A stretch of DNA of 64,000 nucleotides, from contig CAXXXS010000001.1 of assembly GCA_963665085.2 (NCBI GenBank), positions 609,155-673,154 of the forward strand, given 5' to 3'. The notes beneath the pieces are model-generated. The model ran no database searches, was not told the origin of the DNA, and saw only the letters and a program-made list of their open reading frames with translations. Positions 42,669-60,334 of this stretch are shown here, in pieces. Position 1 is the stretch's first letter; the number at the start of each line of letters is the position of its first letter. This DNA is from Bacteroidales bacterium (lineage in GTDB: Bacteria; Bacteroidota; Bacteroidia; Bacteroidales; JAAAOM01). The position numbers were made by a program, and so were the translations under genes.

Positions 42669-45600
42669 TATTTAATTAATCTTATTGATTCTGAGTAACC
42701 AGTTTCTAATTCTGTAACCCTCAAAAAATATAATCCAGAAGGAATTTCATAACCAAACTGTAGCGTTGATTCAGTTTCTTCTAGGATAGAGGAATGAAGT
42801 ACATTACCAGAGATAGATATTAATTCCATCTTTAATTCACCACTTATTCCATTTCTAGCTATTAGAAGACTATTTTTAAACGGATTTGGATAGGCACTAA
42901 CTTTGTTTAGTTTAGCACTCTTATGGTTCCCAATTCCTACTGTTGGCTCTAATTTTTTATTAATCACTGCCTGTAAAACACTATTATCATCTTCATCCTG
43001 CAAGAACAAAGCAACTTTCATATTGTCTACATTCTCAACATTGTCAACATCCCAGGTATAGCTATCTGAATATTCTTCATCTTCATCCCAGTCAGATTGT
43101 AATAAAATACCTCCTGCATCTGGCAAAAACTTCCTGAATGTATTCATAAAAATGATATTCTCCCCATCTACTTCCAGTTCAACAGAATCTTCAAGAATTA
43201 CAATGTATAGATATAAATCCCTGTCATTTGTTGATTCTAACGATTTTACCGAATAATCAACGCCAAGGGTATTATCCTCAACAACTGTATTTAATTCTAA
43301 TTCAAAGTTTGATTCTTCAAGTGATTTTACAATAATATCATTGCTTGAGATATCACTTGTCCCGTATTCATAAATATCAGTCCCATCCAACAAAGACAAT
43401 GGCACTGTTGAAGAGCCATAATATAGAAGACGGGCATTTACTTCAAGTGGGTTTATTAAATTAAAAGGATCGCTCCCCGGAAAATCTGTGTGATATTGAA
43501 TATCTATCAGATCGTTAATATTCTCTAATCTAAGTGTATTTATGAGATTGTCTTCTGTTAAACTAAGATCATCATTTGTGTTGGTAAAATGCTCTAAAAG
43601 AACCACATGATTTCGTTCCTGAAACCAAATATTATCAAAGCTTACACCACCATTCTCGTTATTAGTACCATCAGAACCATATACAATTCTAAACTGAATA
43701 TTGGTTTTTCCAGCTAATTCGTCCAATCGATGTCTTACTTCTACCCACTTAGTATCCTTAATATTAGTCCAGCCTTCATCATGTCCGCCAGGGTTACCGT
43801 TTATCTGATATGAATTGTACCAATTAAGACCATCATCGACAGTACCAACTAGATTCCATGTTTTTCCATTATCCGTTGTATATTGCAGGTTTGCGCCGTC
43901 ACGAACTTCCTCAAAATCCCTCCAAATATCAAACTTAACAAAAGGTTTCTCTATATCTTCAAAATTAAAACATGGACTTTTTATCCAAGAGGATTCTTCT
44001 CCCGTATATTCAAGTTGTGTGTACCATGCTTTATTGTTTGTTGTCTTACTAAGGCTTTCTTCTGTTGAGCCAAATAACCAACTGTTATTATTTAAAGCTT
44101 TGCTAAATTCATTTTCCCAATATGTATTAGTCACTTCAAAGTCCTGGAAATAAGGGCCATCAGCAATTTTAAAAGTAGGTTTGAGCTGAATATTATCCTC
44201 AACAGTATCTACACATCCTTGCGTAGTTTTTGCTATCAATTTCACCAGGTATTCATCAAGAAGACTGAATTTATAGTATATACTATCTCCATAAAAATAT
44301 TCTGTCCCTACATCATCAGAAAAAATCCACTCATATTCAACTATATCGTAATTACTGGTAACTGTTTGCACAAAAAGAATTGAAGTATCTGGATCTAAAC
44401 ACTCAGAGGAAAAAGTAAAACTTGAAAGAGGGCTTTTCCCAAATTCAATATCTTTTGTAGCAGTAGCCACACAATTTTCACTAGTAGTTGCAGTAAGAGA
44501 TACAGTATAATCATCTGCTGTTTCGTACGTATGAGAAGGATTTTCTATAGTACTGGTATTCTGAGAACTTCCAAAATCATTAAAATTCCATAACCAAGCA
44601 GTTATTTCATCTTCCGACTCGGTTTGGTTAATAAACCTAATTGCTAATGGGGAATTTTCATTTACACATGTATCCTGTGTTGTGAAATAAATATGCGGTA
44701 TATCATTAACAACAACCGTTTCTATGGCTTTACTAATACATCCACTTGGCGCTTCATAACTAAATGTAAGATCATTAGTCCCAACACTAGCTTTTTTGGG
44801 ATTAAAATAGAAATTAATTGCGTCTGTAGTATCTGATTCGACACCTGTACCAGAAAACACACCGTCCAGTTCACTTCCATTTAATACAATTCGTGAATCA
44901 TTTCCACAAAATTCTGTTGTATTAAGTATAAAAAAGACCTCATCCACATATTCTATACTTATAATTCTTTCCAAAGCGTCATAAGAACTTCCGCTCCAAT
45001 AGGTATACGTAATTGTATAATCGCCAACTCCAAGGACCTGGGGATTGATAGTAGCACTGTTGTCTCCATGGTTTGTTAACCCAACACCTCCTGATATTGA
45101 AAAAGTACCTACCTGCTCATAAATATTAGCCCCTGTTATAATAAAAGGATCTTCATTCGAACAAAACACATCCCTATCATCAGGAAAAAATATATTCGCA
45201 ATCGAATCAATTATTGTAACCTCAGCTGTATCTGAATAAAAACAACCCGTAGTAGGATTTTCATAGCTGTAAATTATTTCGTATGGCGTTTCGCCATATT
45301 CAACTGCCAATTCAGGATAAAATATTGAAGTACTCGTTACAACACCATCTCCTTTAAATTCTCCTCCTGAAGGACTTGCCACTAGTTGAACAGGATTAGA
45401 GTTTATTGCATATGTTGAGCTCAGCCCAACAAACTGAATTTCAACATCAGGATAATTCGATACTGTTGCTGAACCGCTGGACGTTCCAATACAACCATTA
45501 TTATCTGTAAATTCTAATATTTCATATTCTCCAGGCTCTGTAACATGGAAAGAAAAAGGTGTTGTATTAATTCCTTCTATCGTCCCAGCAGATTCATCAT

Positions 45601-46360
45601 CAATCATATATTCCATATCATAAGGAGCAGAACCAGTAAATATTACACTCAACGGCGTTGATTCTTCTGCACATTTCTCATCTCCTCCCACTAAGTATGC
45701 AGTTGATTTATCATAATGCGATAATGTAAATGTTCCAACAGCTGTACCCGTACAGTTTTGATCACTAACAGTAAGAAGTGAATATGTTCCTTCCTGAGAA
45801 ATATTTAAATAATAGGGTGAAGATTGAATCTTAGAAACTGTTACGGCAGTTCCTCCATTATAACTGTATGTTATCTTCCATGGGGCGTTACCGTTAAGAT
45901 CTATCCTTGCATTGTACGAACTTTCTTCACAAATTGATCTATTGCCAGATATTATTGCTTCCGTTAATGGTGCAATGAGACTCGTTTTTATAGTATCTGT
46001 AGAATACGTTATTGGCCCATCATTATCAGAAGCCGCAATCAAATAGAACTCTCCTGTTTTGTCGAATTCTAAAATTGTATCTTGCTCATAAATATTATTA
46101 TAGATATTTGTAAAATCACCTTCTGAATTATTAACCTGGATTGTTACACTCCATGGAGCGGTCCCCGCCAGGGATAAATTAATTTCCACAACCTCTCCAT
46201 AACAAATAGCAGTCTCTCCAGTGATAACTGCTTGTTGAGCAAACACTGAATTAGAAGTCAATAAAAGGACTATAGTGACTCCAAGATATAATATCTTATT
46301 TGCTAACCCTCGTAAATATGCAAATGGCCAGAAATTATTATTTTTGTATTTATTATTCAC
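42665..46360 (-). CDS. Large T9SS-secreted surface protein: Ig-like repeats, two PKD domains, a MAM/LamG-like jelly-roll, an Omp28/thioredoxin-like region and a T9SS C-terminal domain
   Basis: 1231 aa with a signal/TM segment (ILYLGVTIVLLLTSNSVFAQQ). PKD-like segments are present (WLWNFNDFGSSQNTSTIENPSHTYETADDYTVSLTAT; YEWIFSDDVGTE...YLVKLIAKT). There is a jelly-roll-like region (WIKSPCFNF ... GANLQYTTDNGKTWNLVG ... IQFRIVYGSDG). The T9SS CTD reads AYPNPFKNSLLI ... GLYFLRVTE. It is the last gene of the six-gene operon. Confidence 0.8.
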   Translation of the reverse strand: MNNKYKNNNFWPFAYLRGLANKILYLGVTIVLLLTSNSVFAQQAVITGETAICYGEVVEINLSLAGTAPWSVTIQVNNSEGDFTNIYNNIYEQDTILEFDKTGEFYLIAASDNDGPITYSTDTIKTSLIAPLTEAIISGNRSICEESSYNARIDLNGNAPWKITYSYNGGTAVTVSKIQSSPYYLNISQEGTYSLLTVSDQNCTGTAVGTFTLSHYDKSTAYLVGGDEKCAEESTPLSVIFTGSAPYDMEYMIDDESAGTIEGINTTPFSFHVTEPGEYEILEFTDNNGCIGTSSGSATVSNYPDVEIQFVGLSSTYAINSNPVQLVASPSGGEFKGDGVVTSTSIFYPELAVEYGETPYEIIYSYENPTTGCFYSDTAEVTIIDSIANIFFPDDRDVFCSNEDPFIITGANIYEQVGTFSISGGVGLTNHGDNSATINPQVLGVGDYTITYTYWSGSSYDALERIISIEYVDEVFFILNTTEFCGNDSRIVLNGSELDGVFSGTGVESDTTDAINFYFNPKKASVGTNDLTFSYEAPSGCISKAIETVVVNDIPHIYFTTQDTCVNENSPLAIRFINQTESEDEITAWLWNFNDFGSSQNTSTIENPSHTYETADDYTVSLTATTSENCVATATKDIEFGKSPLSSFTFSSECLDPDTSILFVQTVTSNYDIVEYEWIFSDDVGTEYFYGDSIYYKFSLLDEYLVKLIAKTTQGCVDTVEDNIQLKPTFKIADGPYFQDFEVTNTYWENEFSKALNNNSWLFGSTEESLSKTTNNKAWYTQLEYTGEESSWIKSPCFNFEDIEKPFVKFDIWRDFEEVRDGANLQYTTDNGKTWNLVGTVDDGLNWYNSYQINGNPGGHDEGWTNIKDTKWVEVRHRLDELAGKTNIQFRIVYGSDGTNNENGGVSFDNIWFQERNHVVLLEHFTNTNDDLSLTEDNLINTLRLENINDLIDIQYHTDFPGSDPFNLINPLEVNARLLYYGSSTVPLSLLDGTDIYEYGTSDISSNDIIVKSLEESNFELELNTVVEDNTLGVDYSVKSLESTNDRDLYLYIVILEDSVELEVDGENIIFMNTFRKFLPDAGGILLQSDWDEDEEYSDSYTWDVDNVENVDNMKVALFLQDEDDNSVLQAVINKKLEPTVGIGNHKSAKLNKVSAYPNPFKNSLLIARNGISGELKMELISISGNVLHSSILEETESTLQFGYEIPSGLYFLRVTELETGYSESIRLIKY

Positions 46361-47534
46361 TTGAATTCAATTTTAATAGTGCGACATCGCTACTCTCATT
46401 TTCATTATAGCCTACAAGATATAGTTCTCCATCAATTACTAATGAATTATTTACTTGTAATAGAGATGCATTTGAACTGTTATTTGCACCCAATTCTTTT
46501 TTTGCTAAAAAGTCACCATCAAAATCATAATATAATATACAAATATTACCATTTTTCTGGCCTTTAGGAAACCTGTTTGATATTACTGCAAATCCTTTAT
46601 TCTGAAAAACAATATCAACAGGTACAATGTTTCTTGTATCTACAAAATCGGTTTCCCATTCAACACTCAAAAAATTATCCAGATCAACTCCATAAATCTT
46701 CAAACCGCTAACTTCATCATCTGAATTTTTTTCGTTTGCTGCAAAGATTATCGTATTATCATACTTTTTCAGACATAATCCTTCATTAATTTTCTCAGAA
46801 CCATACGATTTATAACCTGTCTGTTTACCTGTACCCTTGAGATTAACAAGCCATATAGATCGTTCTCTACTGGATGTAACATTATAACTCTCTGAATAAC
46901 CAATAAAATAGTATGAATCGTCTACTTCAATAATATTAGAAGCTATATCATCTGCATAACTTCCTCCATTAACGTATTGAGAAACAAGTTCCCCATCCAA
47001 ATTAATTTTCAAAAAATAGGTGTCTGTTAAATCTCCAGTGCTTGTAGTATTTCCCAGTACAACAATCTCATTCCCTAAAATAATAGCATCAGAAGCACTA
47101 ACGCTATTAAGATATTCTCCGTAATAATTGCTCCACTCGATTGAATTATTTTTTAACTTTCTAATAAGTATCCTTTCATTATACCCATCATCCATTACAC
47201 TTGAAACTATGTATAAATTATTCGCTTCATCACAAAGAAGTTTTTGCCCGTACTCATCTTCATCCAAATCATCGAGGATAAAAGGTTTATTAATAAACTC
47301 TCCTTGCTTGTTTAAAAAATATAAACAAGTACTTGCCCTGCTTGTATCTGTAACCTGAAAATTCGATAAGACACAAATATTATTATTATACTCACAAATA
47401 TCTACTCCAATATCGTTTTTACCTTCTCCAAAATATTTAACAAATGCAATATCTGATTGTGTTCCTTCATCAACACATCCCGTTATAAAACTAATAACAA
47501 CAAAAACCGCAAATATGATATTTCTATAATTCAT
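46353..47534 (-). CDS. Lipoprotein with repeated beta-propeller-like units
   Basis: 393 aa with the lipobox SFITGC. Repeated units are present (LYIVSSV..., YFIGYSE..., LYLVGYNENESSDVALLKLN). It overlaps the downstream gene by 8 nt and abuts the upstream gene with 0 nt between them. Confidence 0.6.
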   Translation of the reverse strand: MNYRNIIFAVFVVISFITGCVDEGTQSDIAFVKYFGEGKNDIGVDICEYNNNICVLSNFQVTDTSRASTCLYFLNKQGEFINKPFILDDLDEDEYGQKLLCDEANNLYIVSSVMDDGYNERILIRKLKNNSIEWSNYYGEYLNSVSASDAIILGNEIVVLGNTTSTGDLTDTYFLKINLDGELVSQYVNGGSYADDIASNIIEVDDSYYFIGYSESYNVTSSRERSIWLVNLKGTGKQTGYKSYGSEKINEGLCLKKYDNTIIFAANEKNSDDEVSGLKIYGVDLDNFLSVEWETDFVDTRNIVPVDIVFQNKGFAVISNRFPKGQKNGNICILYYDFDGDFLAKKELGANNSSNASLLQVNNSLVIDGELYLVGYNENESSDVALLKLNSSE

Positions 47535-48566
47535 CTATCTGATTTTTGCTGGTTTATAAAATGTGTATCTGTATCCGATATTAATGAATACATTGTGTAA
47601 AAGAAAGTTATCATCAATATAATAGTTATCTGACCATAAAAAGTCATTATACGTTAACCTATTCTTACTCTGATAAGCAAATCCAATTTTCGAATGAACA
47701 TCTAAAAAAACAGTCCCTTTAGAAATTGGATATGAATAATTAACTCCAACAAGAAGACTCGGTTCAAAAGATCTTCTATGAGATAATATTGATTCCTCTG
47801 AACCAGTATAAGATGTACCTGAGTAGTCACTCTTGGTTGGAGTTCCTTTTGCAGATGTAATAAATTCGAAATTTGCCCCCAGATAGAACTCGGGTGAAAC
47901 AGATAATTCTGGAACAAGGTCACTTAAATCGTAACTTGCAAAAAGGGGTATATTTATTCTTGTCTGTTTTTCTGCAAAATTTATCAAAGCAGTATTCTCA
48001 ATAGATTCTTCGAATTCAAAATTGCTTTGAGATAGTTCAAAACGAATATTTGCGTTCAAATTTTTAACATACTTACTTAAACTATAGGAGGCACCCGCCA
48101 TAAAAGAAAAGCCTGTCTTCCCAAGTTTAATCCCTGTTGAACCGGGTGTTGGTGAAGCTGAATATACTTTTCTAATGTGAATTACTGACTGATTCGCCCC
48201 TAATCCACCATAAAATGAATATATTGGTACTGCTTTGTAAGACTCAAATAGATAGATAAATTCGGCAGGATCATCAGTCCTGACCTCGTAATTAGGAAAT
48301 TCTTTGAAAAAATTTAAAATTGCTATTTCAGCATCTGCCTGGTTATCATCAAATAGATATGTTAATATCAATATTTTATACGCACTAATTTTTTCTTCCC
48401 TGGAAAATCCTTCATTAAGACAAGGGACAAGTAAACTGGGGATATCTTCAATAATTCCATCCTCAAAATTTTGTCTTGCCCTTCTTAGATTATCGGAGCA
48501 ATCATTTTGTGCAAAGTTCTCAACACAAAAAAAAACTAATATTATTGTAAATAATACCCTAATCAT
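47535..48566 (-). CDS. Outer-membrane beta-barrel protein with an N-terminal helical (TPR-like) domain
   Basis: 343 aa. It has a signal peptide (FFCVENFAQ) and a ~100-aa helical region. The C-terminal ~230 aa show an alternating beta-strand pattern and an aromatic terminal strand (FINIGYRYTFY), resembling the OMP_b-brl_2/PorT-like families. Confidence 0.65.
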   Translation of the reverse strand: MIRVLFTIILVFFCVENFAQNDCSDNLRRARQNFEDGIIEDIPSLLVPCLNEGFSREEKISAYKILILTYLFDDNQADAEIAILNFFKEFPNYEVRTDDPAEFIYLFESYKAVPIYSFYGGLGANQSVIHIRKVYSASPTPGSTGIKLGKTGFSFMAGASYSLSKYVKNLNANIRFELSQSNFEFEESIENTALINFAEKQTRINIPLFASYDLSDLVPELSVSPEFYLGANFEFITSAKGTPTKSDYSGTSYTGSEESILSHRRSFEPSLLVGVNYSYPISKGTVFLDVHSKIGFAYQSKNRLTYNDFLWSDNYYIDDNFLLHNVFINIGYRYTFYKPAKIR

Positions 48567-48576: not shown

Positions 48577-51500
48577 TTAATTACATGTTTTTTCATACGG
48601 AATATCATCACCAACATACGTATTCCATTCATTTTGAGAAAAGTTTCTCTCAATGTGTTTACACATTTTCTCTGCCATTACAGAGATAGAAGTTGGCCAA
48701 ACATATACGTTGTTACCATCACGGCTTGATGACACTAAATATTTACTATTCGGGCTAAATTCAACCGAAAACACCCATGAATCGTGACCTGTTAGGACTA
48801 TAGCTGGATCATTATCATCGGAAAGATTCCATAAAAGAATTGTTCCATCGCGACTTGATGACGCTAAAAATTGTCCATTCGGAGAAAAATCTACATCTTC
48901 AACCCTTGATTTATGTCCTTTTAAAGTTCTTATCACATTTCCCGAGAACGGATTAATAAGTTTTACATCTCCTGTTTTGTCGCCAAACGCCAAATACCTA
49001 CCACTTTTATTGAATTTCAAAGTATATATAGAATTACCTGGCTGTTCATAAAGTGTACTTGGAGCGCCATCGGACAGACTCCACAGGACAATTTTACCAT
49101 CCTCCGTACTTCCAACAACATATGAACTACTTGTTGGCCTGGTACAGATTGACAATATCCTAAGATCATTTTCTACGATGATCTTGCCTTTTAATGTTGA
49201 TAGGTCCCAACTAATAATCGATTTATCAGCTCCGGTACTAAATAATAATTGATTATTTGGAGCAAATGCCAGCGACCAAACCTGGCCTGTATGTCCAGAA
49301 AGTTCTTTTGGAGATGCGTTGATGTTAGTTAAATCAAACAGGTATATTTTTGTCCCAGCACTTACACCTAACCATTTCCCATCATTACTAACTACTGCGC
49401 TTCTATACAACTGATTGTCATCTACAATAATAGATTTTGATTTGGGATTTGAAATATTCCAACTAATTATTTTTCCATCATTCCCGGTTGAATAGAAAAC
49501 ATCTGATGAATTAGGGCTGAAAGTGATGGCCCTAACTGCACCTACATGTTCTTTAAAGCTCATAAAAGACTCTTCTTCTGAGGCTTTTAATGCACTCATC
49601 ATCCCATAATAAATATCTGTATTAAATTCTTTGCCATCAAATTTTTTATTTATTTTATATGCCTGGTATGCAAGAAGTGCTTTTAAATTTAAATTTTGAT
49701 TGATTTGCCTGGACTGAATTGCCATTGTATTTGCAATTCCAACCATCCTTTGGTTATATTCACGTTCTTTCTCCCGTTCCGCCTCTGAAACTTGATCTTT
49801 TGTTTTTTCCAATGTTTGCTCAACTTGCTCAACCTGTTTTGCAGCTTGATCAATAGCTTGTTCAGATTCCTGTTTTGCAATATTTGCACCTTGTATAGCA
49901 AGTTCCTTTTCAACAACAGATTTTTCTGAAATAGCATCTGCTATCTTTCGTTTCTCTGATTCTTCTTCTGCAAATGATTCTGCTATTAATTGAAGTTCTT
50001 GTGCCCTAAGTGCATTCTGTTGCGCAATTTCTCTTTGCTTATCAGCCTCTTGTCTTGCTTCTTCTGCAATCTCTCTTTGTTTTGTTGCATCTAAACGTTG
50101 AAAATTTGCATAAAATACAAGTCCAAGAAAAATAAATGATGCTACCCCAAGTACTGCGGCGAATCTCCGGGTCCTAATAAGGGTCCGCTTTTGTAAGCGG
50201 ATTTTTGTCCTTTCCTCAGATTCATATTTTTTCTCGCTGGTCTCAAGAAAAACCATAGTTCTTTCAAAGGCAGGATTGTAGCGTTTTGCCCAGGCAAGAT
50301 TTGGTTTATATTTCTGTCTCCAATTCTGGGCAAGCAATAGATCCGGAGGCCTCCATAAGCCAGACTTTCCTAATTGATATAACTCAGCTGCTTCCGATAA
50401 ACGAAGATACATCCTAACAGATTCTTGTTCCTCGTTAATCCATAATTTGAGTTTATCCCAATTTCGCATGATGCTTTCATGGGAAATATCAATAACCGTA
50501 TTTGGAGTAAGTTCTACTTCTATTGCAGGAGTTAAAAATGCCCTACCCTCCATTCTAAACTTATCAATTACTTCTATTGTATCTCTAACAGAAGCTTGTG
50601 CTACTTCTGCTATTAAAGATACTTTTGCGGGATGCCTGATTCCCCGGTTATCTTCTCCCCTCTCTGTAAGGGTAGTAAACATACTCCTACATATTCTTTT
50701 CCCATCGTCTGTTAACTCATTGTATGCTTCATCAGCATGAATCGATATCGCCCTATCAATTCTTCCAACAGTTTCATAATCAACATAGGATATTGCAGCA
50801 TCTTTATTGCCATATTTAGTCCAATGTTGATAGGTTCTCATTAATGCATGCTGAATTACTGATAACGAATCTATTTCATCCGTCACGTTATTCAACAATT
50901 CATATATTAACTGCTCTTCTATTTTATATCCCGCTACAGAAACAGGACCTGTTATTACTTTTCGATAATCTTCCCTAGACATCCTTGGGATCAAATAATT
51001 ACTTTGATTAATCCTTCTTGCAAGATCCGGGAATTGAGAACATTCGCCCAAAAAATCCGAGCGCATTGTTACAATAACATAGATGGGAAGTTCGGTTTGA
51101 GAGACAGCCTCGGTCAACAACTTGATAAATGTCTCGGTCTCATTAATCACATCGAAGTTACGCGTAACCTCCCTGAACCTGAATAATTCCTCAAATTGAT
51201 CGACAATCAATAATAAATTTTGTCCCTCCCTGAGTTTTAATTGTTTTACTACTTCAATTAAACCAAGTGTACTCCGTTTAAGCAATGATAAAATAACAGG
51301 TTTTGCTGCACTCCTATAGTCATTATCGTCCTTCCTGTTAAATGCCTTATAAATGGACTCAGCCATGTTTGAAATAGGGCTACTGCCAGGCCTAAAATGT
51401 ACTATTTTCCAATTAGCACCGGCCTCTTTAATAAATCCTCCATGCAACCCAGATATTACGCCACAATACACAAGGGAAGATTTACCTTCGCCTGAAGCAC

Positions 51501-51681
51501 CAGTTACTGCAGCAAATCTATATCTTGTCAGATTCCTGATAACTTCAGCACTCTGTCCTTCCCTGCCAAAAAACAAGTAATTATCCCCAATCGAAAAAGG
51601 CCTTAATCCAGGAAATGGATTATAGACACCTTTCACAGAGGTTTCTTGTTCTGTTTTTATGTCAATCTGAGCTTGACTCAT
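48577..51681 (-). CDS. STAND-type P-loop NTPase with a predicted TM helix, a long coiled coil and a C-terminal WD40 beta-propeller
   Basis: 1034 aa. The N-terminal motif is FPGLRPFSIGDNYLFFGRE. Walker A is GASGEGKSS (aa 61-69) and Walker B is LLLIVDQFEELF. The helical module contains DISHESIMRNWDKLKLWI. A basic stretch (KIRLQKRTLIRTRR) precedes the TM helix FAAVLGVASFIFLGLVFYANF (aa ~507-527, nt ~50101-50163). A ~115-aa charged coiled coil follows, then at least 6 WD40 repeats (e.g. GHTGQVWSLAFAPNN...SWDL; GHKSRVEDVDFSPNGQFLASSSRDGTILLWNL). Confidence 0.85.
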   Translation of the reverse strand: MSQAQIDIKTEQETSVKGVYNPFPGLRPFSIGDNYLFFGREGQSAEVIRNLTRYRFAAVTGASGEGKSSLVYCGVISGLHGGFIKEAGANWKIVHFRPGSSPISNMAESIYKAFNRKDDNDYRSAAKPVILSLLKRSTLGLIEVVKQLKLREGQNLLLIVDQFEELFRFREVTRNFDVINETETFIKLLTEAVSQTELPIYVIVTMRSDFLGECSQFPDLARRINQSNYLIPRMSREDYRKVITGPVSVAGYKIEEQLIYELLNNVTDEIDSLSVIQHALMRTYQHWTKYGNKDAAISYVDYETVGRIDRAISIHADEAYNELTDDGKRICRSMFTTLTERGEDNRGIRHPAKVSLIAEVAQASVRDTIEVIDKFRMEGRAFLTPAIEVELTPNTVIDISHESIMRNWDKLKLWINEEQESVRMYLRLSEAAELYQLGKSGLWRPPDLLLAQNWRQKYKPNLAWAKRYNPAFERTMVFLETSEKKYESEERTKIRLQKRTLIRTRRFAAVLGVASFIFLGLVFYANFQRLDATKQREIAEEARQEADKQREIAQQNALRAQELQLIAESFAEEESEKRKIADAISEKSVVEKELAIQGANIAKQESEQAIDQAAKQVEQVEQTLEKTKDQVSEAEREKEREYNQRMVGIANTMAIQSRQINQNLNLKALLAYQAYKINKKFDGKEFNTDIYYGMMSALKASEEESFMSFKEHVGAVRAITFSPNSSDVFYSTGNDGKIISWNISNPKSKSIIVDDNQLYRSAVVSNDGKWLGVSAGTKIYLFDLTNINASPKELSGHTGQVWSLAFAPNNQLLFSTGADKSIISWDLSTLKGKIIVENDLRILSICTRPTSSSYVVGSTEDGKIVLWSLSDGAPSTLYEQPGNSIYTLKFNKSGRYLAFGDKTGDVKLINPFSGNVIRTLKGHKSRVEDVDFSPNGQFLASSSRDGTILLWNLSDDNDPAIVLTGHDSWVFSVEFSPNSKYLVSSSRDGNNVYVWPTSISVMAEKMCKHIERNFSQNEWNTYVGDDIPYEKTCN

Positions 51682-53086
51682 TGGTATTTAATTCATTAAA
51701 AATAGGACTCAAAGATTTATCTAAAAGTTTGTCCTGATATATAATTTTTATAACGTCGCCAATATCTCTTTTAAATATCTTACTATAATCATCTTCTTCT
51801 AGCATTACTGCTTTAACCTTAAATTGTTTCTCCCGGCCATATCCCCAGACTTTCCTCAAATCATTTAATTTTGCGTCAAGCCATCCTTCAACACCATTAT
51901 AGATTATTATAACCCCATCACAATTACTCAAATTCTCGTAGTGTTCGTTGAGTACATTTTGAGCCTCATAATTCAGCTCTAATGTTTTTATTTTATTTTC
52001 TGATAACAAAGATTTTATTCTATCTGCCTTTTCTTCAGCAGTTTTATCATATACAAGATATATTGATTTTTCATCCACTACTTTAGTGTTAGACAATTTA
52101 ACACGGGCTGCAATCTTTTGAAAAATCATTTTTTTTAAGTCCTCAAGAGGAGCTTGAATTATCTCTGTTGATTCGTCTGTCTCTTCTCTTCGTATCCTTC
52201 GAAGATATAATTCCTGTCTTTGATCTGGAATTTTAAGATATGGTGGGATCCAAATTATACGTTGAAAACTTGCTTTTCCCCTGTTTGCTGCTATGAATTC
52301 TTTTACTTGCCTATTCTGAAAATCATTAAGAGAATATGCTGTACCTTTTATATAATCTCCATAAATTCCACCCATAATGTGAATACTGAGCTGAGATTTT
52401 TGACATATATCCAGGATCTCGTTCTTTAATTCATCTGATTGTCTTGGTAGAGAGGATTTCGGAAGCACATCAAATCCTCTTTGTCTTAACTCTCTAATAA
52501 TTTTGTCTCTATATATTTCCTGATCCGGACTGGTCTCTGCAACAAAAACCTTGATAAAGTTATTCTGAGCCTGTTCTGAGTCTTTGTCGACAAATTGATG
52601 AATATCATATACAAGGTCAATTAAGTTGTCCCAGATTACAGAGTTATCCGGGATTTTTTTTGAAAAATCAATAGCCTTAAAACTTTTAATGCCAATATTC
52701 CTTTCAAAGATATTGTACGATGAAAAAGTATTTAGCCACTCTAATTTTGAATCATAAAGGGGTTTTTGGACAATTAACCGAAGTTTTTCTTCGTGTTTCC
52801 CATCCTCAAGCATTTTTTTTAATAATTCCTCATAGGATTTATTTTTAATATATTCAGGAGATATTATTGCAAATAAGATATCAAATTCATCTTTAAAACT
52901 TAAAAAAGTCTCTTCTTTCTCTATCGGGCGAAAATCTTTTATAACTATTTCGATTTTATCTTCGAAGAGCTGACTATATATTTCCTGTGTTAGATTAACA
53001 AATTCAGAAATCCATATAATAGATTTATCTGGTATATCTTTTTTAGATACAGGATAAAATGTTAATATTTTTAATGTTTTTGGCAT
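51662..53086 (-). CDS. Protein of three tandem alpha/beta modules resembling TIR-like/DUF4062 domains
   Basis: 474 aa with no TM or signal sequence. Module 2 (KVFVAETSPDQEIYRDKIIRELRQRGFDVLP ... QLSIHIMGGIYGDYI) resembles the DUF4062 pattern. Modules 1 (ILTFYPVSKKD ... FDILFAIISPEYIKN) and 3 (IYLVYDKTAEEKADRIKSLL ... CDGVIIIYNGVEGW) resemble TIR-like folds. The assignment rests on motif resemblance only. It overlaps the NTPase gene by 20 nt. Confidence 0.5.
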   Translation of the reverse strand: MPKTLKILTFYPVSKKDIPDKSIIWISEFVNLTQEIYSQLFEDKIEIVIKDFRPIEKEETFLSFKDEFDILFAIISPEYIKNKSYEELLKKMLEDGKHEEKLRLIVQKPLYDSKLEWLNTFSSYNIFERNIGIKSFKAIDFSKKIPDNSVIWDNLIDLVYDIHQFVDKDSEQAQNNFIKVFVAETSPDQEIYRDKIIRELRQRGFDVLPKSSLPRQSDELKNEILDICQKSQLSIHIMGGIYGDYIKGTAYSLNDFQNRQVKEFIAANRGKASFQRIIWIPPYLKIPDQRQELYLRRIRREETDESTEIIQAPLEDLKKMIFQKIAARVKLSNTKVVDEKSIYLVYDKTAEEKADRIKSLLSENKIKTLELNYEAQNVLNEHYENLSNCDGVIIIYNGVEGWLDAKLNDLRKVWGYGREKQFKVKAVMLEEDDYSKIFKRDIGDVIKIIYQDKLLDKSLSPIFNELNTNESSSD

Positions 53087-53092: not shown

Positions 53093-56000
53093 TTAACTAG
53101 CTCTTCTTTTTTTTGATGCGTAAAAATCGTTCATTATTTTTTGAAAAACAATTTCTAACTCAGGAAAATCAAATATTTGCATATTGAGATCCTCTCTTGT
53201 GATAGTAATAATTGATGTCATCATTAACGTCTTTACATCAATTTCATCTATTTCCTTATCATGTAACAGTCCAAAATCAATCACACTGTTTTTATTTAAC
53301 CTTAGAATTTTTTTTCCTTTATGTTGTATTTCTACTTCGCCTTCAGCTACAAAAAGAATTGGATAAGTCCATGGGTTTCCTTTATATGTAATTATCCTGT
53401 TTGCTTCCATTGTATCTTCCGTAAGGTAGATTGAAAGTTCTGTAAGTATTGCAGGCCTTAAACTACCGATATGTTTCAATTTTTTAAGAAAATTAACTTT
53501 ATTAATGAGTAATCTTCTCTTAAAAGTTTTATAAAATTCTACTGAATTGTCAAGGAAGAGCCTTGTTTGCTGATCTAACCGTTCGAGCGTTTCGTAATAA
53601 AGATCCGGATCTTTATTAAAAACCAGGCATGCTGCTGTTTCTTGTAAAATTCTGGATTTATGAAACAAAAATGAAATAATTACATCATTTAATTGAAAAT
53701 CATCATTATCAATTAAACTATATAAAACTTCGGCCTTTGTCCAAATACTAATTTGGCCTAGCTCAGAAGTCAGAATCTGGTTAATTATTTCATCTTTTTC
53801 TACTTTTTCAAAAGGAAAAAATTGACTTAATGACTTCATCTTTTGAAGCATTGAAGAACTTTGGAAAGCAGGTATTAAAATTGATTTTATGTTGCTATCA
53901 ATTATATTATCAACTAATTCCAAGGCAAGATGGTTCGATGTTAAGTCTTCTTTTTCAATATAATCCCTCAATTTTGCAATAATGCTCCTGTTATGAATTA
54001 GGGAGAGCATCATGTATATCCTGTCAAAACTATTTTCTATATCATTTTTAAGTGATTCCTGTACTGTTTCAGAATATTCTGTTTTTGCTAATGATACCTG
54101 CAGGGTAAGATTTTGAGTGATTGAACTAACAATTTTAATAATAATATTAAGTATCTTATACTGTGATTTTTCGTTAGGCCTATATCCTGAATCTACTAAA
54201 CTGGATGTTGCTTGTCTTGATACTTCAGGAGAAGAAAAATCAATTTTAGAAATAAGCAACATTTTAGCCTTTTCACTATTAAAATCTCCAACTAACTTAA
54301 CTACTCGTTTAAGTAATTTATCGTCTATTTTAGGTTCAAAAAATAATTTTTCTAAATACTCAATGCATTTATCACCCACTCTAATTAAAACATCATAGGC
54401 ATAAGCATAATTCTCTGCTGATGCCAGCTGATCAATCATAATGGGAGTAAGCTCATTGGCATTAAAATTTGTTGATGCAATAAATGCTGCATTTCTAACA
54501 TTTGGATCATAATCTTTTAACAACAAGATAATCTGAGACATTAGTTTTTTATCCTGAATAGCTCCTATCATATTCGCTGCTAAAATCCGGTTATCAGAAT
54601 CTCTTGAATCGACTAGTTTATAAATATTTGTATAGTCGTTCGTAGTTTTTAATTGAGTAGCAAAAATATCGGAAAGCTTTTTAAATCTTGTTTTTAAATA
54701 CGCATCTTTCAGATTCTTTGTCTGTTTTTCTATCTGGTTCTGATATTGCAACATACTTAGTTTTTCTATCCTTTCTATTGCAAACTCTTTTATTACTTCT
54801 GGGCTATTTCCTAACAAGTAATATAAATTATTTCTAAAATCCGCAGGATAATTACTTTCAGCTAATTTTAATGTATAAAGCATTTTATCAGGATCGTCAA
54901 GCATATTAAGCTTATATAAACGCTGTTTTAATCCTATTACCTGATTTAAAAAATACTTTTTAGATTTTGCTAATTCATTTAAATGGGCCCTCAATAAAAT
55001 CTGAAATTTCTTTAGTAAAAGAAATAACGATACAATTGCAGCGATACATAGGAAGAAAATGACTATTGCCACTACTACTTCCCGGTTTGATGATAGTTTT
55101 GTTATGATGTATATGATTCCTCCAGATATTGCAAGAGAAACAAAATAAAAAGTCCCCCTAAAAAGTCTTCTTAACAAATCATAAGTAGGAATCTTATTAA
55201 TTCTTAATAAGATATTTAACGAAGGAGAGTAAACACTGTCGCGAAGAACATCATTCATTATTTTTAACAGAACAAAAAACAAAAACATGAGAGAATATTT
55301 ACTAATAAAAACATTCTCTTTTATTAAAAAATTTATCGCCAGTAATAATCCAACCAGGATTAAGATAACAACTGGAATCACAAAAATATTAAATGGAGAG
55401 TCGTAACTATTTAAAATTCTTTTAATAAGGATATACTTAAAAAATAATGAGAACATGGACAAAGTCCCCAAGAATAAACCTAAAAACTTAGCATATCCGA
55501 TACCTGATTCATAATTACCCTGAAGTAACGTATAAAACGAAAAATTTATATGAACAGTGATAAAAACAAGAAGCATACAGCTAATGATCATATAAATAAA
55601 ATATGGATATTTAAAAATCATTCTAAGACTTACACTTTCATATTTTCCAGCTATTAATCTTTGTTTTGCGCCATAGTTTGCCTTAGTTGTACTTCCAATA
55701 TTCATTTGTACAAACAAGATCACCAGCACTCCACCAAAAGCAAACAAAAGGAGCTCCCCAGAGTGGGGCCGTATTAATAAATAAACAATTATTAAAAATC
55801 CAACGGCTGCTACACCCAAATAGTAAAATGTATCAAGAAAAAACTTGTACCTCTTTGACTGGTCATTCGTAAAATACAGTCCTTGAATTCCTTGAGTTAA
55901 GTAAAAACTTAAATTATTAATCGGGATTGCAAAAATAACCCCAACATAAAAAATAACCGGAGTAAAGTAAAACAAAGATAATAAGCCTACTATTAGTAAA

Positions 56001-56305
56001 ACTATTAGAAGCAATAAATAGTAATAGAAACTATAAAACCTAACTTTGGTTTGTATTTTCAATCCTGCAAAAACAGGGAATAGAATAACCCCTGCTATAC
56101 CAGAAAAAACAAAAACTAATGGAAGCTCCCTTGCAGAATAATAATGTAAAAAATTTGAGAAGATATAAATATCAAACGCTCCAATAAAAACTCCTAAAAA
56201 AAAAGCTTGCAAAATAAACTTGGAAAGGAAAGACAGTTCATTAAAGTCAATGTTAAAATGACTAAAAAGGTAGTTCTTTATTTGGTTTCCCTTGAGCGAT
56301 TTCAA
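53093..56305 (-). CDS. Polytopic membrane protein (MFS/TLC nucleotide-transporter-like, ~12 TM) fused to HEAT repeats and a C-terminal degenerate cyclic-nucleotide-binding-like domain
   Basis: 1070 aa. About 12 hydrophobic helices occupy aa ~25-430. HEAT/PBS-lyase-like repeats are present (NRILAANMIGAIQDKKLMSQIILLLKDYDPNVRNAAFIAS). The last ~138 aa (nt ~53096-53510) have a CNB beta-roll pattern (RIITYKGNPWTYPILFVAEGEVEIQHKGKKILRLNKNSVIDFGLL). They lack the canonical FGE...R[ST]A phosphate-binding cassette. Confidence 0.7.
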   Translation of the reverse strand: MKSLKGNQIKNYLFSHFNIDFNELSFLSKFILQAFFLGVFIGAFDIYIFSNFLHYYSARELPLVFVFSGIAGVILFPVFAGLKIQTKVRFYSFYYYLLLLIVLLIVGLLSLFYFTPVIFYVGVIFAIPINNLSFYLTQGIQGLYFTNDQSKRYKFFLDTFYYLGVAAVGFLIIVYLLIRPHSGELLLFAFGGVLVILFVQMNIGSTTKANYGAKQRLIAGKYESVSLRMIFKYPYFIYMIISCMLLVFITVHINFSFYTLLQGNYESGIGYAKFLGLFLGTLSMFSLFFKYILIKRILNSYDSPFNIFVIPVVILILVGLLLAINFLIKENVFISKYSLMFLFFVLLKIMNDVLRDSVYSPSLNILLRINKIPTYDLLRRLFRGTFYFVSLAISGGIIYIITKLSSNREVVVAIVIFFLCIAAIVSLFLLLKKFQILLRAHLNELAKSKKYFLNQVIGLKQRLYKLNMLDDPDKMLYTLKLAESNYPADFRNNLYYLLGNSPEVIKEFAIERIEKLSMLQYQNQIEKQTKNLKDAYLKTRFKKLSDIFATQLKTTNDYTNIYKLVDSRDSDNRILAANMIGAIQDKKLMSQIILLLKDYDPNVRNAAFIASTNFNANELTPIMIDQLASAENYAYAYDVLIRVGDKCIEYLEKLFFEPKIDDKLLKRVVKLVGDFNSEKAKMLLISKIDFSSPEVSRQATSSLVDSGYRPNEKSQYKILNIIIKIVSSITQNLTLQVSLAKTEYSETVQESLKNDIENSFDRIYMMLSLIHNRSIIAKLRDYIEKEDLTSNHLALELVDNIIDSNIKSILIPAFQSSSMLQKMKSLSQFFPFEKVEKDEIINQILTSELGQISIWTKAEVLYSLIDNDDFQLNDVIISFLFHKSRILQETAACLVFNKDPDLYYETLERLDQQTRLFLDNSVEFYKTFKRRLLINKVNFLKKLKHIGSLRPAILTELSIYLTEDTMEANRIITYKGNPWTYPILFVAEGEVEIQHKGKKILRLNKNSVIDFGLLHDKEIDEIDVKTLMMTSIITITREDLNMQIFDFPELEIVFQKIMNDFYASKKRRAS

Positions 56306-56437: not shown

Positions 56438-57208
56438 ATGTTCGACCCTTTTAGAAAAGAATTTGGAAAATTTGAGGCACGCAGAGAGTTAGTTTTTCTA
56501 ATTCTATCTGGTTTATTTGTTGGCACACTCGCCATGCTCAATATTTTAGGAATAACACGGTTACTCGACCTATCGTTTACAATATTTAACAGAGAAATCC
56601 CTTTTAGGGTCTTTGTTGGAGTCCTGCCTTATCCGATTACATTTTTATGTACTGACCTAATTAGTGAATTCTATGGTAGAAAAAGAGCCTCTATTGTAGT
56701 TTGGGTTGGGCTTATACTTAATTTATGGGTAATTTTTATTTTATGGATTGGTGGAATACTACCACCAGTCCCAGAATTTAATCCTGAAAACGGATTACCC
56801 TACCCAGGTGATCCTAATCTATTATTTTTCGAGATAAGAAGATATACATTTAGTGCAACCTTTGCATCAATGATAGCATATCTAACAGCCCAGTTTGTTG
56901 ACGTACATATTTTTCATTTCTTAAAAAACCTGTCTAAAGGAAAAATGTTATGGTTACGAAATAATGGATCAACAATAACCAGTCAATTAATAGATTCTTT
57001 AGCTGTTGTTTTAATAACCTATTTTTTTACTCACGCAATAGTAATAAACGAGGGAGAAAGTGTTTCAAAAGTTTTATTCGTATTAATTATATCTAACTAC
57101 CTTTTTAAAATGTTTGCAGCCTTAATTGATACAATCCCATTCTATTTAGGAGTTAATTTTCTATCAAAATTTCTTGACATAGATCCTACAGAAGAATTCA
57201 AAAAATAA
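56438..57208 (+). CDS. yhhQ: Queuosine-precursor transporter family protein (YhhQ/DUF165, VUT family)
   Basis: 256 aa with ~6 TM helices and family-typical segments (YPITFLCTDLISEFYG, NNGSTITSQLIDS). Confidence 0.8.
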   Translation: MFDPFRKEFGKFEARRELVFLILSGLFVGTLAMLNILGITRLLDLSFTIFNREIPFRVFVGVLPYPITFLCTDLISEFYGRKRASIVVWVGLILNLWVIFILWIGGILPPVPEFNPENGLPYPGDPNLLFFEIRRYTFSATFASMIAYLTAQFVDVHIFHFLKNLSKGKMLWLRNNGSTITSQLIDSLAVVLITYFFTHAIVINEGESVSKVLFVLIISNYLFKMFAALIDTIPFYLGVNFLSKFLDIDPTEEFKK

Positions 57209-57210
57209 TT

Positions 57211-57729
57211 TTAACAATCCTTCTTACTTTTCTCCTTTAACAACATCAATAAATCATCTGCATTAAGATTAAACCCAGATATAATATGCTTTGATTGTTC
57301 GTAATAATTTTCTCTTTCCTTCAATTTAGATTTTATAAAATCTATAAGTTCCTCCGGGCTTTTTCCCTTTATAAGGGGCCTGTCTGTTTTTGAAGAATTA
57401 AGACGACTTGAAAGAACTTCTGGAGATATTTTAAGATAAATAGAATCTGAGAATTCATTAATAAGTTTCATATTGTCCCCGAAACAAGGTGCGCCGCCTC
57501 CTGTTGCTAAAACAAATTCTTTTCTTTTAAGTACATTCATTAATGTAGTTCGCTCGATCTCCCTGAATTGTGGTTCACCGTCTTCAGCAAAAATATCCGG
57601 AATTGATTTCCCTGTAGTATCTTCGATTTCAGCATCTAAATCAACAAAGGGATGTTCTAGCCTTGAAGCTAAACGCTTCCCCAGTGTTGTTTTACCTGAC
57701 CCCATAAATCCTACAAGAACTATCTTCAT
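57211..57729 (-). CDS. aroK: Shikimate kinase
   Basis: 172 aa with Walker A GFMGSGKTTLGK, FVDLD and LATGGGAP motifs. Confidence 0.92.
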   Translation of the reverse strand: MKIVLVGFMGSGKTTLGKRLASRLEHPFVDLDAEIEDTTGKSIPDIFAEDGEPQFREIERTTLMNVLKRKEFVLATGGGAPCFGDNMKLINEFSDSIYLKISPEVLSSRLNSSKTDRPLIKGKSPEELIDFIKSKLKERENYYEQSKHIISGFNLNADDLLMLLKEKSKKDC

Positions 57730-57739
57730 AGAATTATTT

Positions 57740-60334
57740 TTAAAAATTTAATTCCATTTGGTTAGAGTCTTCCGGATCTTGATCTTCATTGCTATCATCA
57801 AATTCTGGCTCTTCCTCTTCTACTATTTTGGGGTCAATCTCTTGAATTTCTTTAACCGTAAATGTTGTCAACCTTTTTCCTTTTGCTTTGTAACCTTTTA
57901 CTGCTATAAATTCCTCTGCATCTACTATTTCCGAAGGCCTATCACTGTGTTTCCCTTTGAATGTTATTTCAAATTGAGGATATTTTTCTGATGTAATCAA
58001 GACCAACTTAGATTTAGGATGATCCCCGATAATGCTTTGTTTCTCATTGGTAGGTTCAAAGACAAAACGTTTCAAATAGAAGAACTCTACATCTGCATCG
58101 TAATAAACTACAGAATAAACTTTTGATTCATTAAATTTTTCAACCTGGGTAACATCATCCTCAAAGTGATTTGTAAGATCATAATCCATTGTTCTGTATG
58201 TACCTCTCTCGTTGATGGCGAGAATCTTATCATCTGCTTTGAATTCACCTAAATATTCCCCATTCCCATCATCTTTCAAACGATTAACCTCAGCATCGTA
58301 CCAACGTTTAAGTCCGCCTAATGTAGATATACCTTTTTCTGAAAGTTTAATTTTATGGATCGCATGTTTTGTAAGAATATTACCCATGGATCCTCTTCCT
58401 TTTATTGCCAGCTCACTAAAATCTGTTTCAAAAACAAGCTTCTTCAAACGGGATTTTGGTTTTAAATAGACTTTTACAACTTCTGCCTCTCCGTTAGGAT
58501 TGACTGTCATATAAAGAATTTTTGAACCTTTTTCACCTTTTGTAAAGTGATATTCTTTATCGCGCGTTATACCATAAATAGCGCAACGTTTCATATAAAT
58601 TGCGCCATTAAGCCCATCTCTATAAATTACATTATAAATTGTACGCTTATCATTTTTCTTAAAAACGTCAACATGAACAATATCTTTTCCTACAAAAACC
58701 TTATCGTTAACTTTTGTAATTACATATGTCCCATCTGATTTTATTGCAATAATATCATCAATATCAGAACAATCACAAATAAATTCATCTTTCTTTAAAC
58801 CTGTTCCTATAAAACCCTCTTCCCTGTTGGCATAAAGCTTTTCATTTGCAACTACAACATTTGTAGCCTCAATATTTTCAAAGTTCCTTATTTCTGTTTT
58901 TCTGTCCCTACCCTTGCCATACTTTCGTTTTATTTCTTTGAAATAATCGATGGTTACGTCTATTATGTTGGCAAGCTTATTTTTGACCTCATCCATTTGA
59001 TCTTCCAAACCTTTGATATATTCATCGGCTTTGAAAGAACTAAATTTTGAAATCCTTTTAATTGGAATATTTGAAAGTCTTACACAATCTTCTTGTGTAA
59101 CTTCACGCATTAAATTTTTTACGTAAGGTTGCAACCCATCATAAATTGCTTTGAGAATCTCCTCTTCTGTTTTACAAGTCTTGATATCTTCGTAAATCTC
59201 ATTTAAGATAAAGATCTTTTCCAACGAAGACATATGCCATGTCTCTTGTAATTCAGCAAGTTTTATCTCAAGCTCTCTTTTTAACAGGTTTAATGTCTGA
59301 TCCGTTGAGATTTTAAGCATCTCGCTTACCCCAAGAAACTTTGGTTTATCATCCTCTATAACACAACTATTAGGAGAAATAGAAATCTCACAATCGGTAA
59401 ATGCATATAAAGCATCAATAGTTTGATCAGCATACACTCCTGGCCCTAGGTGAATTAAAATCTCAACCTCACCAGCAGTATTATCATCTACCTTTTTAAT
59501 CTTTATCTTTCCCTTTTCGTTTGCTTTTAAAATAGACTCGATAAGACTGGATGTTGTTCTTCCGAAAGGAATGTCGCGAATGGCAAGTGTAGTTTTATTC
59601 TCTATATCAATTTTCGCCCTGATTTTTATACTGCCTCCCCGAATGCCATCATTGTATTTTGAAACATCAATATAACCGCCAGTCAAAAAATCAGGAAAAA
59701 GTTCGAATTCTTGATTTTTCAAATATTTAATCGATGCGTCTATTAATTCATTGAAGTTATGAGGTAATATTTTTGACGCCAAACCAACAGCAATACCTTC
59801 TACTCCCTGGGCCAAAAGCAACGGGAATTTAACAGGTAAGGTTACAGGTTCTTTATTTCTTCCATCATAGGATGATTTCCATTCCGTGGTTTTAGGATTG
59901 AAAACCACATCGAGCGCAAATTTTGACAATCTTGCTTCAATGTACCTGGGAGCAGCTGCGCTATCACCGGTAAAAACATTTCCCCAGTTACCCTGCGTGT
60001 CTACAAGAAGATCTTTCTGACCAAGTTGTACCAGTGCATCACCAATTGAAGCATCACCATGAGGGTGAAATTGCATGGTATGGCCAATAACATTTGCTAC
60101 TTTGTTGTACCTACCATCATCAAGGCGTTGCATTGAATGCAGGATACGCCTTTGAACAGGTTTTAACCCATCATACAAATGAGGAACAGCTCTTTCAAGT
60201 ATAACGTACGAAGCATAATCTAAAAACCAGGTTTCATACATCCCGGTTATTTTCATAATGTTCGCTGCTGAGGCCTCTGGATTCAGTCCGTTCTCGTCCT
60301 CTGTGTTATTTATATTTTGATTCTCGTCTGCCAT
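57740..60334 (-). CDS. parC: DNA topoisomerase IV subunit A (type IIA topoisomerase A subunit)
   Basis: 864 aa. The GyrA/ParC N-terminal motifs are present (RAVPHLYDGLKPVQRRIL, HPHGD, AAPRYIEARL with the catalytic Tyr). It lacks the length and GyrA box expected of gyrase A and is paired with the short B subunit upstream. It has an acidic C-terminal tail. Confidence 0.85.
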   Translation of the reverse strand: MADENQNINNTEDENGLNPEASAANIMKITGMYETWFLDYASYVILERAVPHLYDGLKPVQRRILHSMQRLDDGRYNKVANVIGHTMQFHPHGDASIGDALVQLGQKDLLVDTQGNWGNVFTGDSAAAPRYIEARLSKFALDVVFNPKTTEWKSSYDGRNKEPVTLPVKFPLLLAQGVEGIAVGLASKILPHNFNELIDASIKYLKNQEFELFPDFLTGGYIDVSKYNDGIRGGSIKIRAKIDIENKTTLAIRDIPFGRTTSSLIESILKANEKGKIKIKKVDDNTAGEVEILIHLGPGVYADQTIDALYAFTDCEISISPNSCVIEDDKPKFLGVSEMLKISTDQTLNLLKRELEIKLAELQETWHMSSLEKIFILNEIYEDIKTCKTEEEILKAIYDGLQPYVKNLMREVTQEDCVRLSNIPIKRISKFSSFKADEYIKGLEDQMDEVKNKLANIIDVTIDYFKEIKRKYGKGRDRKTEIRNFENIEATNVVVANEKLYANREEGFIGTGLKKDEFICDCSDIDDIIAIKSDGTYVITKVNDKVFVGKDIVHVDVFKKNDKRTIYNVIYRDGLNGAIYMKRCAIYGITRDKEYHFTKGEKGSKILYMTVNPNGEAEVVKVYLKPKSRLKKLVFETDFSELAIKGRGSMGNILTKHAIHKIKLSEKGISTLGGLKRWYDAEVNRLKDDGNGEYLGEFKADDKILAINERGTYRTMDYDLTNHFEDDVTQVEKFNESKVYSVVYYDADVEFFYLKRFVFEPTNEKQSIIGDHPKSKLVLITSEKYPQFEITFKGKHSDRPSEIVDAEEFIAVKGYKAKGKRLTTFTVKEIQEIDPKIVEEEEPEFDDSNEDQDPEDSNQMELNF

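Follow-up and report, generated by a model that had tools for sequence, protein, structure and literature searches.

In a 64,000-nucleotide window of the genome of a Bacteroidales bacterium (GenBank assembly GCA_963665085.2, contig CAXXXS010000001.1, positions 609,155 to 673,154 of the forward strand), a gene that we call TRI encodes three consecutive modules resembling the TIR superfamily, and it is directly followed by the gene for a nucleoside triphosphatase (NTPase) of the nSTAND1 class that ends in a WD40 propeller (Table 1). The glutamate on which catalysis depends in TIR-like enzymes appears to be gone from all three modules, its place being taken by Leu88, Gln257 and probably Lys406. 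Because the catalytic residue is lost from every module, strong constraint falls on modules 2 and 3 as it does on the NTPase, no effector domain is present in the NTPase itself, and some relatives fuse a CHAT protease or an extra TIR domain to TRI, as would be expected of an adaptor platform, we favour the view that TRI is a glutamate-less adaptor or regulatory subunit of the TIR superfamily that is assembled by the membrane-anchored NTPase. We hold this view tentatively, at somewhat less than an even chance. The pair as a whole suggests an immune-type signalling device, with the role of a scaffold or sensor rather than that of an enzyme destroying nicotinamide adenine dinucleotide (NAD+).

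An earlier note on this DNA had described the TRI product as a soluble protein of three units, each marked by characteristic strand motifs, and both points held. The protein has no hydrophobic or transmembrane segment (the highest Kyte-Doolittle mean over a 19-residue window was 0.71). Its AlphaFold2 model, which was built on 14 homologues and reached a mean predicted local distance difference test score (pLDDT) of 78.7, consists of three separate (beta-alpha)5 modules that are joined by linkers of low confidence. All of the quoted motifs are present in the protein and lie on the first strands of the model (residues 5-12, 179-182 and 341-345 in modules 1, 2 and 3, respectively) or on the third strands (70-75, 233-237 and 391-395). 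Internal repeat similarity, the absence of which the note would have taken as a refutation, was found only in part. Single-sequence BLASTP among the three modules detected nothing significant (E>0.2), but the comparison of profiles from 120 sequences with hhalign aligned module 2 with module 3 (E=3.6e-4) and module 1 with module 3 (E=0.014), in register in both cases, with no significant result for module 1 against module 2. This similarity is weak and covers the first three strands.

The assignment of the modules to TIR and DUF4062 is supported directly for module 2 and transitively, through the family, for module 1, and it is reasonable, not decisive, for module 3. Residues 179-247 match DUF4062 (PF13271, profile positions 1-68 of 82) with 27.5 bits, above the gathering score of 24.7, and module 2 as a whole was modelled as five beta-alpha units with pLDDT values mostly of 82-92. 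In the window protein, modules 1 and 3 returned only noise when they were searched singly in Pfam, and for module 1 there was no TIR match at E<=10. Because these modules alone have no Pfam match while those of relatives do, their assignment is a transitive one. Module 1 of full-length relatives passes the TIR_2 (PF13676) cut-off of 28 (37.5 bits in P0018, 58.8 in P0022 and 46.9 in P0057). The module-1 part of the family profile matches solved plant and animal TIR structures, namely SNC1, TLR6, TLR1, TLR2, SIGIRR and L6. Module 3 of the relative P0016 matches TIR_2 above the gathering score, with 33.4 bits. When modelled alone with AlphaFold2, module 3 formed a (beta-alpha)5 fold (pLDDT 88.5, predicted template-modelling score 0.85), and a Foldseek search of this model against the PDB retrieved the TIR domains of SARM1, RRS1, RPS4 and RUN1, TIR-STING, and the nucleoside deoxyribosyltransferase enzymes BcmB and DNPH1 at template-modelling (TM) scores of 0.55-0.64; TRIF was matched as well. 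Ras, flavodoxin and the LdcI wing domain ranked in between these matches, and all E-values were 2e-3 or higher.

The family as a whole points in the same direction. Pfam searches over 100 relatives (E<=1e-3) gave DUF4062 in 62, TIR_2 in 53 and TIR in 3, and no family besides these. The top matches in the viral structure library BFVD were deoxyribosyltransferases and a Cap12 TIR protein; PADLOC and NCBIfam had no match for TRI. Of the three TIR/DUF4062-like modules that had been proposed from the sequence pattern, the second is therefore recognized by Pfam itself and the other two only through their family, and the profile searches together with the structural model did not bear out an unrelated fold in all three segments.

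Two preprints of 2026 describe DUF4062 as a TIR-like NADase (bioRxiv 10.64898/2026.05.01.722283; 10.64898/2026.06.25.731849). The catalytic glutamate of this domain is needed for NADase activity and for defence, as the KpSwz E97A and TEP1 E1008A mutants are inactive (bioRxiv 10.64898/2026.05.01.722283), and E87-Y88 of Eva01 has been proposed as the catalytic motif (bioRxiv 10.64898/2026.06.25.731849). Using the Eva01 sequence from plasmid pMW2 as a reference, we found that its residues I10-Y88 align without a gap with V180-N258 of TRI, a stretch running from beta-1 up to where alpha-C begins, and an independent hhalign comparison of the family profile with Eva01 (E=5e-5) gave an identical register. 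In both alignments E87-Y88 corresponds to Q257-N258 of TRI (Gln257 codon, 52316..52318) and the Q/W/E motif of DUF4062 (Q50-W51-E52 in Eva01) to L220-K221-N222; this motif was not seen at the aligned place in the TRI family consensus. The aromatic residue F11 of Eva01 is retained as F181. Of the 120 relatives on which all of our residue counts are based, 112 have Gln in the catalytic column of module 2, 7 have Glu and one has Leu. For module 1, hhalign against canonical TIR_2 places the catalytic column at Leu88 (52823..52825); the same column is Glu in 56 of the relatives and varies even among the closest of them. For module 3, a global hhalign comparison of module 1 with module 3, which is of low confidence, places it at K406. 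A conserved glutamate in each module had been another of the checks proposed in advance; none of the three modules of the window protein has it, and in the family it persists in part in module 1.

The degree of conservation decreases from module 2 to module 3 and then to module 1. There are 26 columns conserved at 80% or more in module 2, and modules 2 and 3 both stand far above module 1. The residues Q257, N258, S252 and H236, which occupy canonical positions of the TIR pocket, are each kept in at least 86% of the relatives, and position 184, where beta-1 ends, is occupied by Glu in 85 of the 120. The strongest motif in the whole protein is the module-3 signature from W402 to R418, which includes K406. 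Within it W402 and K412 are invariant and K406 (117 relatives), D409 (118), G415 (117) and G417 (115) are nearly so, and position 414 is Pro in 102 relatives and Trp in the window protein.

The partner NTPase matches nSTAND1 (PF20703) with 301 bits (E=2.4e-89), has an intact Walker A motif (GASGEGKSS) and matches WD40 families in its C-terminal part. Since the Pfam match begins at residue 22, an N-terminal effector domain would not fit in front of it. The single transmembrane helix behind the NTPase domain is kept in 44 orthologues and also in the loci L054, L057 and L058, and it is separated from the propeller by a stalk of about 170 amino acids rich in Glu, Lys and Gln. With this arrangement the NTPase is predicted to be cytoplasmic, and the stalk and the propeller to be periplasmic. 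Across orders, the identity is 50-78% in the NTPase domain, 61-71% in the neighbouring Vut_1 gene product and 31-64% in module 2 of TRI, and module 1 is often undetectable; the conservation of module 2 tracks that of the highly conserved NTPase domain.

The two genes are obligately paired. The nSTAND1-WD40 gene directly follows TRI wherever downstream sequence was available (55 related loci and 2 variant loci), and the genes overlap or abut wherever genes were called. The pairing spans four phyla, in three of which it is represented by only one or two loci each. In the window both genes lie on the minus strand, and the TRI stop codon (TGA, 51664..51662) falls 20 nucleotides inside the NTPase open reading frame (ATG, 51681..51679), exactly as had been read before. 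In the orthologous loci with called genes, all three of them, the overlap is 8 nucleotides. Such an overlap points to putative translational coupling of TRI to the NTPase gene. On the other side, the upstream open reading frame stops 6 nucleotides short of the TRI start codon.

If TRI is an adaptor, the periplasmic WD40 propeller would sense a cue in the envelope, possibly with the involvement of the outer-membrane protein, the lipoprotein and the surface protein of the type IX secretion system (T9SS) encoded in the same operon. The signal would then pass through the single transmembrane helix and cause NTP-dependent oligomerization of the cytoplasmic NTPase, and the NTPase oligomer would collect TRI into a higher-order TIR-like assembly. 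Because the glutamate for NAD+ cleavage is absent, the output of TRI would be scaffolding or ligand binding rather than the destruction of NAD+, and it would be exerted through two conserved surfaces, one being the module-2 pocket (A183/E184/T185, D188, H236, G239, S252, Q257 and N258) and the other the W-K-D-K-PGFGR signature of module 3. A plausible target of TRI would be the upstream membrane protein, which combines MFS-like and HEAT-repeat parts with a cyclic-nucleotide-binding domain (CNBD). The earlier note had left the choice between an NAD-consuming effector and a scaffold; the scaffold fits better and the NAD-consuming effector less, because the catalytic glutamate is absent from all three modules.

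Several observations weigh against an adaptor. About half of the TRI family has the canonical SxWCxKEL motif in module 1, and with this motif retained the family as a whole, or some of its members, may be enzymatic. No other part of the protein is as well conserved as the pocket of module 2, and the pocket residues E184, H236 and D188 could conceivably provide another catalytic mechanism. The position of the catalytic column of module 3 is probably K406, as placed by an alignment of low confidence. Finally, the predicted periplasmic location of the WD40 propeller is derived from one argument, the positive-inside rule.

Table 1. Features of the TRI locus in the window; module boundaries are those of the AlphaFold2 model.
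Feature	Position	Strand	Description	Basis
TRI gene	51662..53086	-	ATG start, 474 amino acids, soluble, three TIR-superfamily-like modules	open reading frame and translation
Module 1	52583..53086	-	residues 1-168, degenerate TIR-like	TIR_2 in relatives, family profile
Module 2	52091..52552	-	residues 179-332, DUF4062	PF13271 above gathering score
Module 3	51686..52066	-	residues 341-467, flavodoxin-fold, TIR/DUF4062-like	model, Foldseek, hhalign
Module-3 signature	51833..51883	-	W402-x3-K406-x2-D409-x2-K412-x-(P)-G415-x-G417-R418, here WLDAKLNDLRKVWGYGR	
Gene overlap	51662..51681	-	20 nucleotides, TRI stop and nSTAND1 start	read from sequence
Partner NTPase	48577..51681	-	nSTAND1 (residues 22-436), transmembrane helix, coiled-coil stalk, WD40 propeller	PF20703 and WD40 families
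NTPase transmembrane helix	50116..50172	-	single, residues 504-522, predicted N-in/C-out	hydropathy, Lys/Arg-rich N-terminal flank
Upstream gene	53093..56305	-	about 12 transmembrane helices (MFS-like), HEAT repeats, C-terminal cyclic-nucleotide-binding-like domain	hydropathy, HEAT_2
Downstream operon genes	42665..48566	-	three, tightly packed	signal peptide, lipobox, Pfam
Outer-membrane protein	47535..48566	-	beta-barrel-like, signal peptide	
Lipoprotein	46353..47534	-	weak DUF5122 beta-propeller signal	
T9SS surface protein	42665..46360	-	Ig-like/PKD/Omp28, 1,231 amino acids, T9SS C-terminal sorting domain	
Flanking housekeeping genes	56438..60334		queuosine-precursor transporter (Vut_1), shikimate kinase, topoisomerase IV/gyrase A subunit	

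In the Bacteroidota loci, the TRI-NTPase pair lies within a syntenic six-gene envelope operon, in which the MFS-like/HEAT/CNBD gene is followed by TRI, the NTPase gene and the genes for the outer-membrane-barrel-like protein, the lipoprotein and the T9SS surface protein, with a HAMP-SpoIIE gene inserted before TRI in some loci. Some 50 Bacteroidota genomes, which come from several orders, keep this gene order, and it was seen in most of the loci that were long enough. The outer-membrane gene comes after the NTPase gene in nearly all long-enough Bacteroidota loci, and the lipoprotein and T9SS genes were present in fewer. In the upstream gene, the match to MFS_1 is weak and was found in an orthologue. 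Its CNBD-like domain scored E=0.044 with the window protein alone, and PF00027 was matched by 14 of 19 orthologues; as a profile searched against the PDB, this domain matched the CNBDs of PKG, HCN and PycTIR, with values down to 3.6e-24. Its phosphate-binding cassette looks degenerate.

The locus does not look like a mobile defence island, because its gene order is syntenic, its G+C content is native, and TRI has no match in PADLOC or among plasmids and phages. The G+C content of the operon is 32.9%, compared to 33.9% in the rest of the window, and tblastn found nothing matching TRI in the plasmid and phage collections. The Vut_1 gene, which is divergent from the operon, is a neighbour in 21 of the 55 related loci, from more than one order. 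Horizontal transfer was considered and looks unlikely in view of the native G+C content, the conserved Vut_1 neighbour and the absence of a paralogue within the window. In a wider proposal, TRI and the NTPase would make up the cytoplasmic core of an NLR-like machine of Bacteroidota that spans the envelope and is vertically inherited, and in which disarmed TIR/DUF4062 modules (Glu replaced by Gln, Leu or Lys) were re-used for assembly or ligand binding. This machine would further include the outer-membrane protein, the lipoprotein, the T9SS surface protein and the MFS-HEAT-CNBD protein, and it would serve a conserved envelope function rather than phage defence. This proposal is possible and, taken as a whole, rather doubtful.

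It is conceivable that TRI is an NAD+-consuming effector or signal generator like those of Swarozyc or Thoeris, activated by the NTPase and using a non-canonical carboxylate (for example E184 of module 2 or E86/E87 of module 1). DUF4062 and many bacterial TIR domains are NADases, and the pairing of STAND proteins with TIR domains is a classic design of abortive infection. The strong constraint on the module-2 pocket, including the frequent Glu at position 184, would be in agreement with an enzyme, as would the Glu retained in module 2 of 7 relatives and the module-1 Glu and SxWCxKEL motif kept in about half of the family. However, none of the three modules in the window protein has the canonical glutamate, and mutation of this residue to Ala kills the activity of every DUF4062 or TIR enzyme in the papers that we read. 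Moreover, the locus is neither patchy nor mobile, as judged from its synteny across orders, native G+C content and lack of plasmid or phage matches, and PADLOC has no match for TRI. We consider an effector of this kind unlikely. Another idea, which we also regard as improbable, is that TRI is a small-molecule receptor, whose Gln-bearing DUF4062 pocket binds NAD+, ADP-ribose or a similar ligand without cleaving it and which signals the metabolic or second-messenger state to the NTPase or to the CNBD transporter. The change of Glu to Gln is a classic substitution that keeps the binding of a substrate and removes catalysis, the residues Q257, N258, S252 and H236 of the canonical pocket are well kept, and CNBD-type membrane proteins are encoded next to TRI in the Bacteroidota loci and also in a single locus of Acidobacteriota. 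However, no signal-making enzyme is evident in the operon, and the CNBD has a phosphate-binding cassette that looks degenerate. A receptor of this kind overlaps with an adaptor, and the sequence alone cannot separate the two.

A more basic objection is that the three modules are generic flavodoxin- or Rossmann-like domains, such as receiver-, UPF0261/Tm-1- or periplasmic-binding-like ones, and that the DUF4062 match is fortuitous. The top Foldseek matches of the whole model were indeed Tm-1/UPF0261, glutamate-receptor N-terminal domains and MenD; module 3 alone also matched Ras, flavodoxin and the LdcI wing domain, and, in the window protein, neither module 1 nor module 3 had a Pfam match of its own. 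The whole-model matches had TM scores of only 0.13-0.25 with root-mean-square deviations of 13-23 Å, and we rejected them because they are artefacts that arise when three Rossmann-like modules are aligned together. In addition, DUF4062 was matched above its curated cut-off, the family profile aligned with Eva01 and with solved TIR structures, the Pfam matches of 100 relatives were restricted to DUF4062, TIR_2 and TIR, and the deoxyribosyltransferases and Cap12 headed the BFVD matches. A fortuitous resemblance is effectively excluded and carries only a very slight probability in our estimate.

Among known systems, Swarozyc (KpSwz) and Evangelion (Eva01) share the DUF4062 domain with TRI, since module 2 scores above the DUF4062 cut-off, aligns with Eva01 without a gap and has F181 in the place of F11. 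These systems consist of a single gene encoding DUF4062 and an auxiliary domain, are mobile, occur in defence islands and have the catalytic glutamate. In contrast, TRI has Q-N for E-Y, no Q/W/E motif, two flanking TIR-like modules and a STAND partner encoded by a separate gene, and its locus is chromosomal and syntenic. TRI is not a Swarozyc or Evangelion system; judged by score it belongs to the DUF4062 family of Pfam, and judged by the alignments it has neither the catalytic glutamate nor the Q/W/E motif of the active enzymes.

The TEP1/NWD1-type proteins (DUF4062-NACHT-WD40) of eukaryotes and bacteria have the same order of a TIR-like DUF4062 domain, a STAND NTPase and a WD40 sensor. However, the TRI system is split into two overlapping genes, its NTPase is of the nSTAND1 and not the NACHT class, a transmembrane helix precedes the WD40 part, and there are three TIR-like modules. 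TEP1 was the only active one of four human DUF4062 proteins assayed, which is a precedent for a silent DUF4062 domain (bioRxiv 10.64898/2026.05.01.722283). The nSTAND1 conflict systems are similar in that the partner belongs to PF20703 and has C-terminal repeats as a sensor. The nSTAND1 proteins described so far have N-terminal effector or effector-associated domains and are found in variable conflict loci (Kaur et al. 2021, eLife 10:e70394), whereas the partner NTPase has no N-terminal domain, has a transmembrane helix and keeps 50-78% identity across orders in a fixed gene order. With the non-catalytic TIR adaptors of animals (MyD88, MAL, TRIF and the TIR domains of TLRs), TRI has in common a glutamate-less TIR fold, and its profile matches TLR1, TLR2, TLR6 and SIGIRR. 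The animal proteins signal by templated higher-order assembly. They differ from TRI in that no orthology is detectable, TRI has three modules in tandem, and its assembly partner would be a STAND NTPase instead of a receptor TIR domain. By analogy, TRI may resemble a split and triplicated version of the DUF4062-STAND-WD40 logic of TEP1/NWD1, combined with that of the non-catalytic animal TIR adaptors.

As DUF4062 was recognized as a TIR-like NADase only in 2026, the TRI family would be the first large and conserved lineage in which the glutamate of this domain is systematically replaced, and here the domain has a further TIR-like module on either side and is linked to a STAND NTPase with a predicted extracytoplasmic sensor. 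If TRI is an adaptor, bacteria also use non-catalytic TIR assemblies, as in the TLR/MyD88 pathways of animals, and NLR-like machines could sense across the inner membrane. A search of the literature found no earlier triple TIR/DUF4062 protein and no transmembrane nSTAND1 protein with a periplasmic WD40 propeller, which is not a proof of their absence.

A stand-alone array of three such modules had been thought to be an unusual architecture. In fact it is common: a search profile made from the first 14 homologues retrieved 3,407 representatives of 50%-identity clusters at E<=1e-3, of which 1,044 passed E<=1e-30. Among the best 150 matches, nearly all have a length of 450-500 amino acids and match end to end. 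A few members depart from this architecture. The DUF4062 module is duplicated in P0022, P0057, P0097, P0102 and P0112, the last of which has an additional canonical TIR_2 domain at its C-terminus (110 bits). P0108 (locus L058) starts with a CHAT protease, and P0159 has an N-terminal extension of 320 amino acids. In the variant loci L057 (P0022) and L058 (P0108), the gene next after TRI is still that for an nSTAND1 protein with a transmembrane helix and a WD40 part. In two metagenome-assembled genomes (MAGs), the reading frames of TRI and the NTPase are split into fragments (L053:10005-14059 and L055:10872-14362), which may be pseudogenes or frameshifts of the assembly.

The operon also varies ahead of TRI. 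A gap of about 2 kb separates the HEAT-repeat gene from TRI in L034 (7980-9977) and in about 14 other loci, including L015, L020, L035, L036, L038, L039, L041, L043 and L044. The gap in L034, the only one that was checked, is occupied by a sensor-HAMP-SpoIIE (PP2C phosphatase) gene, which the window does not have; such a gene hints at a phosphorylation-based branch of the TRI pathway. In a MAG of Acidobacteriota (Vicinamibacterales), the TRI-nSTAND1 pair is preceded by a gene in which a MIP channel is fused to a genuine cNMP_binding domain (L054:5894-7875, E=3e-19), and a gene with a metallo-beta-lactamase fold also lies ahead of the pair. In this locus TRI is associated for a second time, and independently, with a membrane protein that bears a CNBD.

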